Counted from the first letter of the stretch, positions 331 through 4,399 are shown. The stretch: DNA of 64,000 nucleotides from Candidatus Babeliales bacterium (GCA_963743635.1 CAVUQO010000003.1:224001-288000); one strand, 5' to 3'. The notes: generated by a model from the letters alone, not told the origin. Numbers and translations are program-made.

Positions 331-1157
331 ATAATTACCCCCTTTTGGCTAGATATTATTTCTATCTGTCTATATATAAGTATAGCTATTTTTGGAAGCT
401 TTGCAACCCCTCTTGTTGCCCTGAAATAGCCTGTTTTGCTGTAAATTATTTGCTTTTTGGGGCATCTTAATACACTAGGTGGGGATTCAGATAGAAAAAT
501 ATGGGGGCGCAAATAGAGCAGCTCTGTGGCGTTAGGAGTAGGGGGGTTTTATCCAGTGCAGGTTCAGCCCTGGTTAGTGTACCTATTCGAGGGGGGTGCG
601 AGTGTAGCTAGTTGGGGTTAGCTATAGCAGTAGTGGGCTCTGTGGCCATAGGTCTGTATTTACACGTTTTTTCATGCGTGTTGCGCGCATCTGATCGAGG
701 AAAAAGTTCACCACAACCAGCGAAATTGCATGTATACGGCTTCTCACCGGTGTGTTTTCTGATGTGGGTTGCTAGATTGCTTTCTCGTGCGAATTTACGG
801 TGACAGAATGAACATGCGGCCATCGGCTCGCCAGTATGGATTTTTTTGTGCAACTCAAGATCTGCGTTGCGTGCAAATGATTTGCCACAATTTTGATGAT
901 CGCATACGTAAGGTTTTTCGTCAGCATGAGTTCTTATATGACTCCTCAAATGGCCTACCTGCCTAAAGCTTTTGCCACAACCTTCCTCTTCGCAGAGAAA
1001 TGGGCGCTCGCCGCTATGAATGAGTTTGTGATCTTTTAATCCGCTAGAAGACATGAATGATTTGCCGCATCCGGGTTCATTGCAGACATATTTCTTGATA
1101 ACCGCACGAATCGTAGTGGCGGCAGGAGCAGCTTGATGGGTTGTTTTTCGCGCTTGG
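1..1157. repeat. Direct repeat copy 1 (about 1.15 kb): ZF gene 3' end, intergenic region and next gene 5' end
   Basis: Matches 3242..4399 at offset 3241/3242; the intergenic part is almost identical. Confidence 0.95.
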
Positions 1158-3571
1158 TCAGTGTGTCTTCTTATATGTTTTGCGAGATTGCTTTTGTCCC
1201 CACATTTAAAATCGCAGCCCTCGACAGAGCAGGCGAGTTGTTTTTTATTCGCATGTACTGCGCTCTGAGTTGAGGGAACGCCATTTGCGGCTTCGTCGCC
1301 ATCATCATCATCATCATCATCATCATCATCATCATCATCATTATCATCATCATTATTATTATCATCATCATTATTATTATCATCATCATTATTATTATTA
1401 TTATTATTATTATTCGCGTGGTGATAAAGATTGGATGCTGCTGCATTAAATCCATGTGTCGCGGCGGATACTACTGCGAGTTCATCAACTGTTCTTTTGG
1501 AGCCAGTTAAACGCTCTTGGGTAATGCCAATTACATTTGCGTTTTTGGACTGATCTTGATCCATGTCGTCATCATCATCAGGTGATGTAATATTTTGATC
1601 CTGTGGTTCGACCAGGTTTGCTATGGCCTGATTAGGATGACGTTTTTTCATATGATAATTGAGATAGTCTTTGCGTGCAGCTTGATAATCGCAGCCCTCG
1701 ACAGAGCAACGGAATGGTTTATCGTCGCGATGTTTTATCATGTGCGTGGCGAGCGTATCTTTGCGTGCAGCTCGATAACCGCAGCCCTCGAAAGAACATA
1801 CTAAAGGCTTTTCGTCGGCATGTGTTGTTATATGCCTGGTGAGATGGCTTTGCGAGGTAGTTCGATGATTGCAGCCCTCGAAAGAGCAAAGAAATGGTTT
1901 TTCGCGAGTGTGTGTTCTCATATGTATGGCGACAGCACTTTGCGAGGTAAAATTTTTACTGCAGCCAGCAGCAGTGCAGGGGAATCGTTTTTTATTCGCA
2001 TGTACTGCGTTCTGAGTTGAGGGAACGCCATTTGCGGCTTCGTCGCCACCCTCATCCTCATCGTTCCCATCCTCATCGTTCCCATCATCATCATCATCAT
2101 CATCATCATCATCATTATTATTATTATTATTCGCGTGGTGATAAAGATTGGATGCTGCTGCATTAAATGCATTTGTGGCGGCGGATACTACTGCGAGTTC
2201 ATCAACTGTTCTTTTGGAGCCAGTTAAACGCTCTTGGGTAATGCCAATTACATTTGCGTTTTTGGACCCATCTTGATCCATGTCGTCATCATCATCAGGT
2301 GATGTAATATTTTGATCCTGTGGTTCGACCAGGTTTGCTATGGCCTGATTAGGATGACGTCTTCTCATATGATCATTGAGATAGTCTTTGCGTGCAGTTC
2401 CATAATCGCAGCCCTCGACAGAGCAACGGAATGGTTTATCGTCGCGATGTTTTATCATGTGCGTGGCGAGCTTATCTTTGCGTGCAGTTCCATAATCGCA
2501 ACCCTCGAAAGAGCAAAGAAATGGTTTTTCGCGAGTGTGTGTTTTTATATGCCTGGTGAGAGCACTTTGCGAGGTAGTTCGATGATTGCAGCCCTCGAAA
2601 GAGCAAAGAAATGGTGTTTCGCGAGTGTGTGTTCTCATATGTATGGCGACAGCACTTTGCGAGGTAAAATTTTTACTGCAGCCAGCAGCAGTGCAGGGGA
2701 ATCGTTTTTTATTCGCATGTACTGCGTTCTGAGTTGAGGGAACGCCATTTGCGGCTTCGTCGCCACCCTCATTATTATTATTATTATTATTATTCGCGTG
2801 GTGATAAAGATTGGATGCTGCTGCATTAAATGCATTTGTGGCGGCGGATACTACTGCGAGTTCATCAAATGTTCTTTTGGAGCCAGTTAAACGCTCTTGG
2901 GTAATGCCAACTATATTTGCCTTTTTGGACAGATCTTGATCCATGTCGTCATCATCATCAGCAGATGGTATAATATTTTGATTTTGTGATTCGACCAGGC
3001 TCGCTATGGCCTGATTGGGATGACATGTTTTTGTATGATGTGTGAGACTTGTCTTATCCGCAAATCGATAGACGCAGCCTGCCAAAGTGCATGCGAATGG
3101 CGTATCGCCAGTGTGTGTTCTTATATGAATGGTGAGATGGTTTTGCTGTGTAAAAATCTTTGAACAGTATTGGCACGTAAATTGTTGATTACCGTGGTCG
3201 CTTGCCTGTGCTTGAGGAACTGCAGGAACCGATTGGTGTGCTGCTGGGGCAGGTAGCGCGGCTTCGCATGAATTGATCGCCATTAATAATGCGGCAAATC
3301 CGGACAATATTGGGGGTTGCGTATTATGAGATACTTGATTTTGATTGCGGTCATTGATATTTGCTGATAATGCGGCAACACCAGGAAGCCTTGCGGGCTC
3401 TGTGGCGTTAGGAGCAATTGCATCGTCATCTTCATCGATAACGGCAGAAGATCGTTTTTGACCAGTTATTGTTCGTATATTTATGTTTTTAGACTGATCT
3501 TGATCCATTGCGAACACGCCCATAAAAGAGCAGCTCAGAATCAGCGCTAAAAAAATTGATGAGTTTTTCAT
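608..3571 (-). CDS. Secreted multi-C2H2 zinc-finger protein (16 fingers by manual count, the last C2HC), with poly-Asn/Asp tracts
   Basis: Repeated Cx2-4C...Hx3-4H units with TGEKP/SGERP/TREKP/ADEKP linkers; hydrophobic N-terminal signal; three internally repeated spacer modules. Confidence 0.93.
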   Translation of the reverse strand: MKNSSIFLALILSCSFMGVFAMDQDQSKNINIRTITGQKRSSAVIDEDDDAIAPNATEPARLPGVAALSANINDRNQNQVSHNTQPPILSGFAALLMAINSCEAALPAPAAHQSVPAVPQAQASDHGNQQFTCQYCSKIFTQQNHLTIHIRTHTGDTPFACTLAGCVYRFADKTSLTHHTKTCHPNQAIASLVESQNQNIIPSADDDDDMDQDLSKKANIVGITQERLTGSKRTFDELAVVSAATNAFNAAASNLYHHANNNNNNNNEGGDEAANGVPSTQNAVHANKKRFPCTAAGCSKNFTSQSAVAIHMRTHTRETPFLCSFEGCNHRTTSQSALTRHIKTHTREKPFLCSFEGCDYGTARKDKLATHMIKHRDDKPFRCSVEGCDYGTARKDYLNDHMRRRHPNQAIANLVEPQDQNITSPDDDDDMDQDGSKNANVIGITQERLTGSKRTVDELAVVSAATNAFNAAASNLYHHANNNNNNDDDDDDDDDDGNDEDGNDEDEGGDEAANGVPSTQNAVHANKKRFPCTAAGCSKNFTSQSAVAIHMRTHTREKPFLCSFEGCNHRTTSQSHLTRHITTHADEKPLVCSFEGCGYRAARKDTLATHMIKHRDDKPFRCSVEGCDYQAARKDYLNYHMKKRHPNQAIANLVEPQDQNITSPDDDDDMDQDQSKNANVIGITQERLTGSKRTVDELAVVSAATHGFNAAASNLYHHANNNNNNNNNDDDNNNDDDNNNDDDNDDDDDDDDDDDDDGDEAANGVPSTQSAVHANKKQLACSVEGCDFKCGDKSNLAKHIRRHTDQARKTTHQAAPAATTIRAVIKKYVCNEPGCGKSFMSSSGLKDHKLIHSGERPFLCEEEGCGKSFRQVGHLRSHIRTHADEKPYVCDHQNCGKSFARNADLELHKKIHTGEPMAACSFCHRKFARESNLATHIRKHTGEKPYTCNFAGCGELFPRSDARNTHEKTCKYRPMATEPTTAIANPN
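1300..1413. repeat. ATC/ATT trinucleotide microsatellite encoding poly-Asn/Asp; shorter homologues at about 2083-2131 and 2770-2794
   Basis: Directly visible (ATC)n/(ATT)n runs at the same position in each protein module. Confidence 0.95.
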
Positions 3572-4399
3572 ATAATTACCCCCTTTTGGCTAGATATTAT
3601 TTCTATCTGTCTATATATAAGTATAGCTATTTTTGGAAGCTTTGCAACCCCTCTTGTTGCCCTGAAATAGCCTGTTTTGCTGTAAATTATTTGCTTTTTG
3701 GGGCATCTTAATACACTAGGTGGGGATTCAGATAGAAAAATATGGGGGCGCAAATAGAGCAGCTCTGTGGCGTTAGGAGTAGGGGGGTTTTATCCAGTGC
3801 AGGTTCAGCCCTGGTTAGTGTACCTATTGGAGGGGGGGTGCGAGTGTAGCTAGTTGGGGTTAGCTATAGCAGTAGTGGGTTCTGTGGCCATAGGTCTGTA
3901 TTTACACGTTTTTTCATGCGTGTTGCGCGCATCTGATCGAGGAAAAAGTTCACCACAACCAGCGAAATTGCATGTATACGGCTTCTCACCGGTGTGTTTT
4001 CTGATGTGGGTTGCTAGATTGCTTTCTCGTGCGAATTTACGGTGACAGAATGAACATTCGGCCATCGGCTCGCCAGTATGGATTTTTTTGTGCAACTCAA
4101 GATCTGAGTTGCGTGCAAATGATTTGCCACAATTTTGATGATCGCATACGTAAGGTTTTTCGTCAGCATGAGTTCTTATATGACTCCTCAAATGGCCTAC
4201 CTGCCTAAAGCTTTTGCCACAACCTTCCTCTTCGCAGAGAAATGGGCGCTCGCCGCTATGAATGAGTTTGTGCTGTTTTAATCCGGTAGAAGAACTGAAT
4301 GATTTGCCGCATCCGGGTTCATCGCAGACATATTTCTTGATAACCACAGGAATCGTAGTGGCGGCAGGAGCAGCTTGATGGGTTGTTTTTGGCGCTTGG
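3242..4399. repeat. Direct repeat copy 2
   Basis: Matches 1..1157. Confidence 0.95.

Follow-up and report, generated by a model that had tools for sequence, protein, structure and literature searches.

A tandem cluster of leader-bearing C2H2 zinc-finger array genes in a Dependentiae bacterium encodes candidate secreted DNA-binding effectors

We analysed a 64,000-nucleotide stretch of DNA, the window, from a metagenome-assembled genome (MAG) of a Candidatus Babeliales bacterium (GCA_963743635.1 CAVUQO010000003.1:224001-288000). Within its first 4.7 kb, the window has three minus-strand genes that encode arrays of C2H2 (Cys2His2) zinc fingers: gene A, of which only the 5' end is included, and genes B and C, both of which are complete. 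Reading 12 kb upstream of the window revealed that these genes belong to a tandem cluster of five zinc-finger genes, A to E (Table 1).

Table 1. Features of the zinc-finger gene region, with positions counted from the first letter of the window
Feature	Position	Strand	Remarks
Gene A 5' end, first 110 codons including signal leader	1..330	-	619-aa gene, 8 fingers, continues past window start to G000:C3:222471
Intergenic A-B	331..607	-	promoter-like site 406 to 379 (TTGCAA-16-TATACT) and Shine-Dalgarno; duplicate of 3572-3849, 2 differences in 277 nt
Gene B, 987 aa, 16 C2H2 fingers	608..3571	-	PF00096 E=7.7e-56, PF13465 E=1.9e-47; finger pattern scan
B signal leader, 22 residues ending ..VFAM, then DQDQ	3506..3571	-	same leader end on BamA, TamB
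B fingers 1-2 (aa 131-184)	3020..3181	-	finger pattern scan
B fingers 3-6 (aa 291-406), paralogous to fingers 7-10	2354..2701	-	dN/dS 0.63; 19 nonsynonymous, 8 synonymous
B fingers 7-10 (aa 530-645)	1637..1984	-	paralogous to fingers 3-6
B finger 11 (aa 779-803)	1163..1237	-	25-residue core equals gene A finger 6 except residue 1
B fingers 12-16 (aa 828-970), TGEKP-type linkers	662..1090	-	duplicate of gene C's five fingers
Poly-Asn/Asp coding tract, trinucleotide repeats, B spacer 3	1300..1414	-	shorter tract at 2053-2115
Intergenic B-C	3572..3849	-	promoter-like site 3647 to 3620; Shine-Dalgarno AAGGGGG before B start
Gene C, 279 aa: leader (4630-4689), acidic region, five fingers (3904-4332)	3850..4689	-	PF13465 E=2.3e-25, PF00096 E=3.8e-24
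Second copy of 1217-nt segmental duplication	3183..4399	.	first copy is window -58..1157

A pattern scan found the spacing C-X2-5-C-X12-H-X3-5-H/C in 16 fingers of gene B, five of gene C and eight of gene A, with a repeat unit of 28-30 residues. The Pfam scores of these genes (183.9 bits for B, 84.1 for C and 87.8 for A) compare with a cut-off of 25.2. Gene D (170 aa) has one finger-like pattern and no Pfam match, and gene E (240 aa) has one finger scoring 20.4 bits, which is under the cut-off. Helix residues are numbered here such that the first histidine is +7, and the contact positions are -1, +2, +3 and +6. Position +4, in the hydrophobic core, is Leu in 27, Val in two and Arg in two of the cluster's 31 fingers. 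The linkers in the five-finger module of B and C are SGERP, ADEKP, TGEP and TGEKP; elsewhere they are TREKP, TRETP, RDDKP and SGHKP, and many linkers in A and B depart from TGEKP. Judged by sequence, the fingers are classical C2H2 units. Their best solved relatives are the DNA-bound arrays of ZNF568, Aart, PRDM9, ZNF410, TFIIIA and YY1 (to E=1.7e-60), and their best database matches, with an identity of 33-48% that is confined to the fingers, are a mixture of animal ZNFs with TFIIIA and ZNF76. No specific eukaryotic donor could be identified from this mixture. Neither KRAB (PF01352) nor PR/SET was among the Pfam matches (E threshold of 0.01 in genes B and C and of 0.001 in gene A), a scan of B and C gave no Pfam match to the TAL (transcription activator-like) or Ros/MucR families, and residues 23-130 of B had no usable match in the ESM Atlas.

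The genome (G000 in the coordinates given here) comprises 1.45 Mb in three contigs and is 85% complete, and the window lies inside an 818-kb contig. All 20 PF00096 matches of the genome are confined to this single locus. On one side, the cluster is flanked by genes for a T2SS/T4P-type (type II secretion system/type IV pilus) ATPase, BamD, CdsA and HisRS, and on the other by genes for TamB, a PLD-family protein, RluD and MgtE. Open reading frames (ORFs) are dense around the cluster and the zinc-finger genes have no introns. Their GC content of 0.43-0.44 compares with a genome mean of 0.428, and the GC content at third codon positions lies between percentiles 25 and 58. The zinc-finger genes are bacterial, and their composition is native. 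Gene B is preceded by a Shine-Dalgarno site and a sigma-70-like promoter. The HisRS at this locus has its closest named relatives in Candidatus Dependentiae/Babeliales (60-62% identity). The genome contains four ATP/ADP translocase matches, compared with none in any of 14 control genomes, as well as two secretins, 17 ankyrin matches and a second, intact T2SS ATPase. This set of ATP/ADP translocase, T2SS and ankyrin genes matches the description of Dependentiae, intracellular parasites of protists, in two papers (PMC4776705, PMC4378268). The organism carrying the cluster is a Dependentiae (TM6) bacterium.

Two stretches of the cluster, -58..1157 (negative positions lie upstream of the window) and 3183..4399, are 96.4% identical over 1217 nt, with a period of 3.24 kb. 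The 968-nt core at 63..1030 holds only six differences, and the edges hold 29 (in -58..62) and nine (in 1031..1157). Each copy takes in the last five fingers of a gene, the entire intergenic region including the promoter, and the beginning of the neighbouring gene with its leader and N-terminal region. The head of gene B is therefore common to A and B, and the tail of gene B is common to B and C. Gene B also contains an internal 717-nt repeat, a module of four fingers and a spacer, and 90-nt finger units recur within the modules. Fingers 3-6 and 7-10 of B differ by 27 nucleotide changes in 360 nt. The original prediction had proposed, from helix differences between fingers in nearly identical surrounding DNA, that duplication was followed by retargeting of DNA specificity. 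The near identity of the surrounding DNA is confirmed by the above values, and the duplication itself is shown by the segmental repeat and the internal module repeats.

Every spacer in B starts with MDQDxSKN, a sequence that is also present behind the leader, where the mature protein would begin. The likeness between spacer starts and N-terminus had a local score of 63, compared with 36 +/- 6 in 200 shuffles (maximum 52). This recurrence at spacer starts suggests that genes which were once separate became fused in frame to give gene B. The B spacers also hold poly-Asn/Asp tracts of varying length that are encoded by trinucleotides. The 3' end of gene A is frameshifted after ..HANNK, just upstream of the window start (10188-10531 of the 12-kb upstream stretch). 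Beyond this point, the other frame encodes one intact finger and one containing a stop, therefore genes also decay within the cluster. Within-module homogenisation is visible in module 2, where DYGTARKD occurs twice. Pairwise dN/dS values within the cluster, which rest on small counts, were 1.94 for the tail of B versus C (14 nonsynonymous and two synonymous changes), 0.25 for the heads of A and B, and 0.35 within A. The values for spacers (1.16) and for non-contact finger positions of this genome (1.12) were close to 1. Segmental duplication, repeats of the 717-nt module, fusion of genes, trinucleotide slippage and frameshift are the processes by which this cluster expands and degenerates, a birth-and-death mode of evolution that involves unequal crossing-over or gene conversion.

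Short-read contigs of four runs break in these repeats, and no piece spans the stretch. Both paralogue variants are present in the short-read contigs of three runs from two studies. We considered the variant letters at 3303, 3366, 3829, 3880, 4058 and 4107 as strain variation and rejected this, as they represent a paralogous copy aligned to its twin. Short-read contigs of two runs join position 1245 to 1955, skipping 709 nt or approximately one 717-nt module. This joint may be either a module copy-number variant or an artefact of the assembly graph.

We compared the helices of near-identical fingers within the window. The five helix differences named in the original prediction are all present in the finger list and the alignment. 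Within B, these are A337/H576 and K367/T606 at +3 and D400/Y639 at +6. Between B and C, S843/T135 at +2 and D847/Q139 at +6 lie in one finger, and A903/S195 lies at +2 in another. The non-helix changes that it had mentioned, DYGT/GYRA and the linker swap TREKP/ADEKP, were found as well. Its expectation that changes are denser at the contact positions was not upheld beyond chance in this window. Among 13 near-identical pairs of 30-residue finger units (390 aligned residues), 6/52 contact residues and 32/338 other residues differed (odds ratio (OR) 1.25, one-sided Fisher p=0.40). Leaving out the invariant positions +4 and +7 or the linkers did not change this outcome (p=0.31-0.47). The nine pairs used earlier gave 6/36 versus 16/234 (p=0.055), and those pairs had been picked after the pattern was seen. 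Pairs between B and C alone gave 3/20 versus 3/130 (p=0.03), and the four pairs involving gene A gave 0/16 at contact positions versus 16/104 elsewhere. Four of the six finger differences between B and C fall within a single finger located at the frayed edge of the duplicated tract. When all 31 cluster fingers are compared, helix variability is highest at +6 (entropy 3.26) and +3 (3.00), and does not stand out at -1 or +2. In this genome, contact codons show eight nonsynonymous changes and one synonymous change. The window data are too few to decide on a contact bias. Because there are few changes and no significant bias, retargeting cannot be demonstrated from the window alone.

For the wider family, we collected 390 fingers from 24 of 25 genomes and formed disjoint within-genome pairs with 80% to <100% nucleotide identity, resulting in 89 pairs from 15 genomes. 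Differences affected 128/356 contact residues (36.0%) and 349/2176 residues at all other positions (16.0%; OR 2.94, p=8e-17). When the six structural positions were left out, 332/1602 of the other residues (21%) differed and the excess at contact positions remained (OR 2.15, p=2.5e-9). Dropping one finger that lies under a better ORF had no effect in a re-run. The contact rate exceeded the rate elsewhere in 14/15 genomes (Cochran-Mantel-Haenszel chi-square 38.9), and with contigs of at least 100 kb only, the counts were 58/188 versus 164/846 (p=5e-4). Only 15 of the 7315 possible sets of four positions reached the observed contact count. The most changeable positions were +6 (0.416), +3 (0.404), -6 (0.382) and -1 (0.360). 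Nei-Gojobori dN/dS was 1.59 for contact codons, 0.78 for other non-structural codons and 0.03 for structural codons. Canonical DNA-contact residues change faster than other residues at the family level, and purifying selection on structural residues is strong throughout the family. The structural dN/dS of 0.03 and the contact excess thus indicate that the fingers are kept folded while the reading residues change. The enrichment predicted for fingers of related genomes is therefore borne out by the counts given above.

The bias depends on the identity of the pairs. It was strongest at 80-85% identity (OR 4.95) and weaker at 85-90% (OR 1.79) and 90-95% (OR 1.67, p=0.06). The 21 youngest pairs, with at least 95% identity, had no bias (OR 0.73, 4/84 versus 25/388). 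Considering this absence, the bias may partly reflect helices that are kept distinct while gene conversion homogenises the frameworks. The age pattern can be explained either by selection needing time or by the preservation of distinct helices during framework conversion, and the contact residues matter in both cases. Only the option in which selection needs time is duplication followed by retargeting in the strict sense. Retargeting is thus supported in part: at the family level, it is backed by the odds ratio without structural positions and the contact dN/dS; the youngest pairs show no contact bias and the window no significant one. The parallel drawn in the original prediction with PRDM9 and KRAB-ZNF arrays had assumed a eukaryote, whereas these genes are bacterial, bear leaders and lack KRAB or SET domains.

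All five genes of the cluster open with a basic and then hydrophobic leader that ends in a small residue, Met and a polar residue. The leader ends are VFAM/DQ in A and B, SFAM/NA in D, GYAM/QN in E and SFSM/SS in C. The leader of C hinges on the use of the first ATG as start; the start annotated in the source database (P0007, 252 aa) is 27 codons later and leaves no leader. Leaders were called by a crude in-house rule for basic, hydrophobic and cleavage regions, applied to 1404 crude ORFs of at least 90 aa in this genome. A hydrophobic N-terminus was present in 572/1404 of these ORFs, and approximately 133 had the phi-x-A-then-M leader end with Gln, Asp, Glu or Asn as the next residue. In this leader set, Ala is at -1 in 96/133 and the median position of Met is 22. 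The motif AM[DE] occurs 39 times at residues 20-29, where 4.3 are expected per 10-residue bin, and the residue following [AGS]M is Q, D, E or N in 108/205 cases, compared with a background of 19.5%. The same leader motif is found on BamA (Omp85 and POTRA), TamB, large WD40 families and GNAT acetyltransferases. Since BamA and TamB carry the same leader end, the leader is the ordinary Sec signal of this organism, and we rejected the idea of an effector-specific export signal. The leader predicts that the zinc-finger proteins leave the cytoplasm; their final location is not indicated by it. Cleavage after Ala would, speculatively, leave mature N-termini of Met-Gln, Met-Asp, Met-Glu or Met-Asn. 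Such a start resembles that of ordinary cytosolic proteins in eukaryotes, and we speculate that it might spare exported proteins from degradation by the N-end rule of the host.

Other genes in the genome carry this leader. Examples in the window lie at 3506-3571, 5354-5420 and 45970-46032. Two adjacent GNAT acetyltransferase genes on the minus strand (45337-46032 and 46057-46509) share it, and the first of these has an NLS-like (nuclear localisation signal) SKKRKAD just past the leader. Given this combination, the GNAT protein is a candidate secreted acetyltransferase acting in the host. Tandem paralogues of approximately 377 aa at 30077-31210 and 31230-32360 on the plus strand have the leader end ..SADEAM/DS and belong to no Pfam family. 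Two large families of leader-bearing WD40 beta-propellers total approximately 20 copies in tandem groups (G000:C3:1311-8191, C2:109192-115737, C3:795121-802791 and elsewhere). By eye, hydrophobic N-termini were seen on 13/13 ankyrin ORFs checked.

We next looked at the distribution of the zinc-finger genes. PF00096 matches were found in 14/40 close relatives. At E up to 1e-4, they were present in 62/261 Dependentiae species genomes (including G000), 37/145 genera and 43/189 high-quality genomes, compared with 1/14 controls. Several Dependentiae genomes possess tandem clusters of five to ten C2H2 genes. In stretches from ten relatives, GspE, TamB, HisRS, BamD, CdsA, RluD and MgtE were not found beside the zinc-finger clusters, and there was one PLD match only. 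The position of the cluster is therefore not conserved. We counted leaders and basic clusters in 31 loci of 25 genomes, which included 72 ORFs with at least two fingers and an N-terminus inside the locus. A signal-like leader was present on 62/72 of these ORFs, compared with the 572/1404 baseline of G000. A strong basic cluster (KRKR, KKRKR) within 60 residues before finger 1 occurred in 28/72 ORFs from 10 genomes, compared with 102/3699 random 60-residue windows. The architecture of predicted leader and finger array recurs across the phylum.

Outside Dependentiae, a scan of genome contigs with gene C found one relative among 68 candidate stretches, in a Pseudomonadales MAG (G261, 3.5 Mb). In this MAG, 129 PF00096 matches fall in dozens of paralogous ORFs, most of approximately 430-460 aa, with large tandem arrays at C1:72-86 kb, 1540-1556 kb and 3097-3137 kb. 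Two of its ORFs consist of a leader, a pretoxin-HINT/intein-like segment (sub-threshold, 21 bits versus a cut-off of 27.7) and two to three C2H2 fingers. The fingers here occupy the place of the toxin module in polymorphic toxins.

Considering the leader, the finger arrays and their pattern of change, we suggest on balance that the region is a tandem Dependentiae cluster of secreted DNA-binding effectors that would act in the host nucleus and whose evolution would involve duplication, shuffling of modules and selection on the residues that set specificity. The zinc-finger proteins would be exported through Sec and then released from the cell by a type II system or by vesicles, as proposed for the ankyrin proteins of Dependentiae. 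They would enter the nucleus of the protist host, aided in many relatives by the basic cluster, and each array would bind specific host DNA. The acidic poly-Asp/Asn tracts between the modules are possible activation regions. Duplication, followed by the change or retention of different specificity residues, would then diversify the targets. Such a function would make these proteins the zinc-finger counterpart of TAL effectors.

Several observations weigh against this interpretation. The window itself lacks a significant contact bias, as do the youngest family pairs, and pairs from one genome share history. In this genome, dN/dS outside the contact positions is 1.12 and gene A is frameshifted, both of which fit relaxed constraint. 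A general Sec leader signifies passage of the inner membrane only, so that the proteins could stay periplasmic or surface-bound, and cysteine-rich zinc fingers would need to cross an oxidising periplasm. The zinc-finger genes of G000 have no strong basic cluster before finger 1, and nuclear import is therefore not indicated for them. Across relatives, paralogues inflate the leader and basic-cluster counts, and basic clusters occur in 10/25 genomes. Half of the 20 stretches from relatives reach a contig end and some contigs are short; copy numbers are therefore underestimates. For the window taken by itself, an explanation that comes close to being probable is that the helix differences reflect neutral drift with patchy gene conversion or unequal crossing-over among very young paralogues, which is silent on retargeting. 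This fits the overall counts in the window and those of the pairs with gene A, the crowding of differences at both edges of the tract, where the SSSGLKDH/SSTGLKQH finger lies, the homogenisation in module 2, the unbiased youngest pairs of the family, and dN/dS near 1 in spacers and non-contact positions. The pairs between B and C (p=0.03) and the eight to one ratio in contact codons point the other way, and the bias across 14/15 genomes makes a functional meaning plausible.

Other alternatives concern the origin and the ligand of the proteins. It is improbable, in our view, that the proteins are exported into the host with fingers that bind RNA or proteins instead of DNA. C2H2 fingers can bind RNA, as in TFIIIA, and proteins. 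TFIIIA is among the closest relatives, many linkers in A and B depart from TGEKP, and position -6, which is not a base contact, is highly variable as well. However, variability peaks at +6 and +3 and is also high at -1, which matches the canonical base-contact set, few alternative sets of four positions do as well, and the C-terminal five-finger module has canonical linkers. An action on the bacterium's own DNA, either as Ros/MucR-like regulators or as self-addressed elements binding their own promoters, is very unlikely. Bacterial C2H2 regulators do exist (Ros/MucR), and the intergenic promoter region was duplicated along with the genes, but the Sec leader on 5/5 cluster genes and 62/72 relatives would take the protein out of the cytoplasm where the chromosome resides. 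Moreover, there is no Ros/MucR match, NLS-like clusters occur in 28/72 ORFs, and arrays reach 16 fingers. Contamination of the MAG with eukaryotic or viral DNA, or a misassembly, is in our view an extremely improbable source of the zinc-finger genes. Their nearest sequence relatives are animal zinc-finger proteins (33-48% identity) and the short-read contigs break in the repeats. Nevertheless, the intronless genes sit between bacterial genes in the 818-kb contig, have bacterial promoter and Shine-Dalgarno signals, native composition and a leader that matches that of BamA, and share their architecture with many related genomes, including contigs of 0.5-1.4 Mb. Both paralogue variants were recovered in short-read contigs of three runs from two studies.

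A broader version of the host-effector interpretation is tentative, and we would not yet call it probable. Dependentiae, and possibly other symbionts, would possess rapidly evolving sets of secreted, programmable C2H2 proteins, which would reach the nucleus of the protist and switch genes of the host. Alongside TAL effectors, these would be a second class of designer transcription factors from bacteria, evolved independently and kept in an arms race that is seen as contact-residue dN/dS >1.

Among known systems, the arrays resemble Krueppel-type poly-C2H2 factors (KRAB-ZNF clusters and PRDM9; ZNF143/ZNF76, TFIIIA, ZXD and the C-X4-C class) in finger pattern, TGEKP-type linkers, tandem clusters, growth by duplication and, in the family overall but not in its youngest pairs, excess change at -1, +2, +3 and +6. 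Unlike these factors, they are bacterial, intronless and equipped with a Sec leader, and have no KRAB, SCAN, BTB or SET domain. The identity of the Dependentiae arrays to any eukaryotic protein is only 33-48%, over the fingers only. Ros/MucR proteins share the bacterial Cys2His2 zinc coordination and DNA binding, which is predicted here. They have a single finger within a larger globular domain and are cytoplasmic, without leader or arrays, in contrast to the arrays of 5-16 fingers behind a leader described here.

In their proposed mode of action, the proteins are like the TAL effectors of Xanthomonas and Ralstonia (named in PMC7819608): exported, modular DNA-reading repeats with an acidic region and, in relatives, an NLS, acting on host genes. 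As in TAL effectors, specificity would change at few residues per repeat. The differences are a zinc finger of approximately 30 residues with a fold unrelated to that of the 34-residue TAL repeat, a Sec leader and no type III system, and protist hosts. PMC7819608 presents other nucleomodulins, among them the TRP proteins of Ehrlichia, as effectors proposed to act on host chromatin or DNA, which is a further likeness. The ankyrin proteins of Dependentiae, as in Babela massiliensis (PMC4378268) and Chromulinavorax destructans (PMC6561590), belong to the same phylum and likewise have eukaryote-like repeats behind a signal peptide, tandem expansion and presumed T2SS delivery. Signal peptides are reported for 79/126 ankyrin proteins of Babela, with the T2SS as the only secretion system found (PMC4378268), and for 44% of coding sequences of Chromulinavorax (PMC6561590). 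Since the domain here is C2H2 instead of ankyrin, nucleic acid is the predicted ligand, not protein. By proposed function, the arrays come closest to TAL effectors, and by lineage to the secreted ankyrin family of Dependentiae.

The accessible parts of the nucleomodulin review PMC7819608 mention no bacterial C2H2 array. The terms C2H2 and zinc finger are not in the main text of PMC4776705, PMC6561590, its preprint 10.1101/379388 or PMC12172432, and the word zinc appears 0 times in the main text on Babela (PMC4378268). In the literature on zinc fingers of Dependentiae, Babela and TM6, on nucleomodulins, and on eukaryotic-like domains in symbionts and Legionella, we found no description of C2H2 arrays in Dependentiae or as bacterial effectors, although supplementary domain tables of Dependentiae genome papers may list the Pfam family. 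A family of secreted poly-C2H2 proteins in intracellular bacteria is apparently undescribed.

Poly-C2H2 arrays are hallmark eukaryotic transcription factors, and in an animal the helix pattern would be nothing unusual. The arrays described here come from obligate intracellular bacteria, stand behind export signals, occur in approximately a quarter of the species genomes searched and bear a signature of selection for altered specificity. If host nuclei are where they act, they would represent a new class of effectors with a readable recognition code. Predicted binding sites might then help to assign hosts to uncultured Dependentiae, and the family would be a natural setting in which to test the evolution of DNA-binding specificity when host and parasite are in conflict.

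Two further features lie next to the cluster. Between the zinc-finger genes and TamB, an ORF at 4779-5324 on the plus strand has no Pfam match and, by eye, a prepilin/pseudopilin-like N-terminus (Gly-Phe-x-x-Ile-Glu followed by a hydrophobic helix). The T2SS/T4P-type ATPase (MshEN and T2SSE) beside the cluster is split into two overlapping ORFs (7139-7819 and 7780-8859 of the 12-kb upstream stretch; G000:C3:219139-220859), which is either a frameshift or a sequencing error. The second, intact T2SSE ATPase is encoded at C3:527994-529139.

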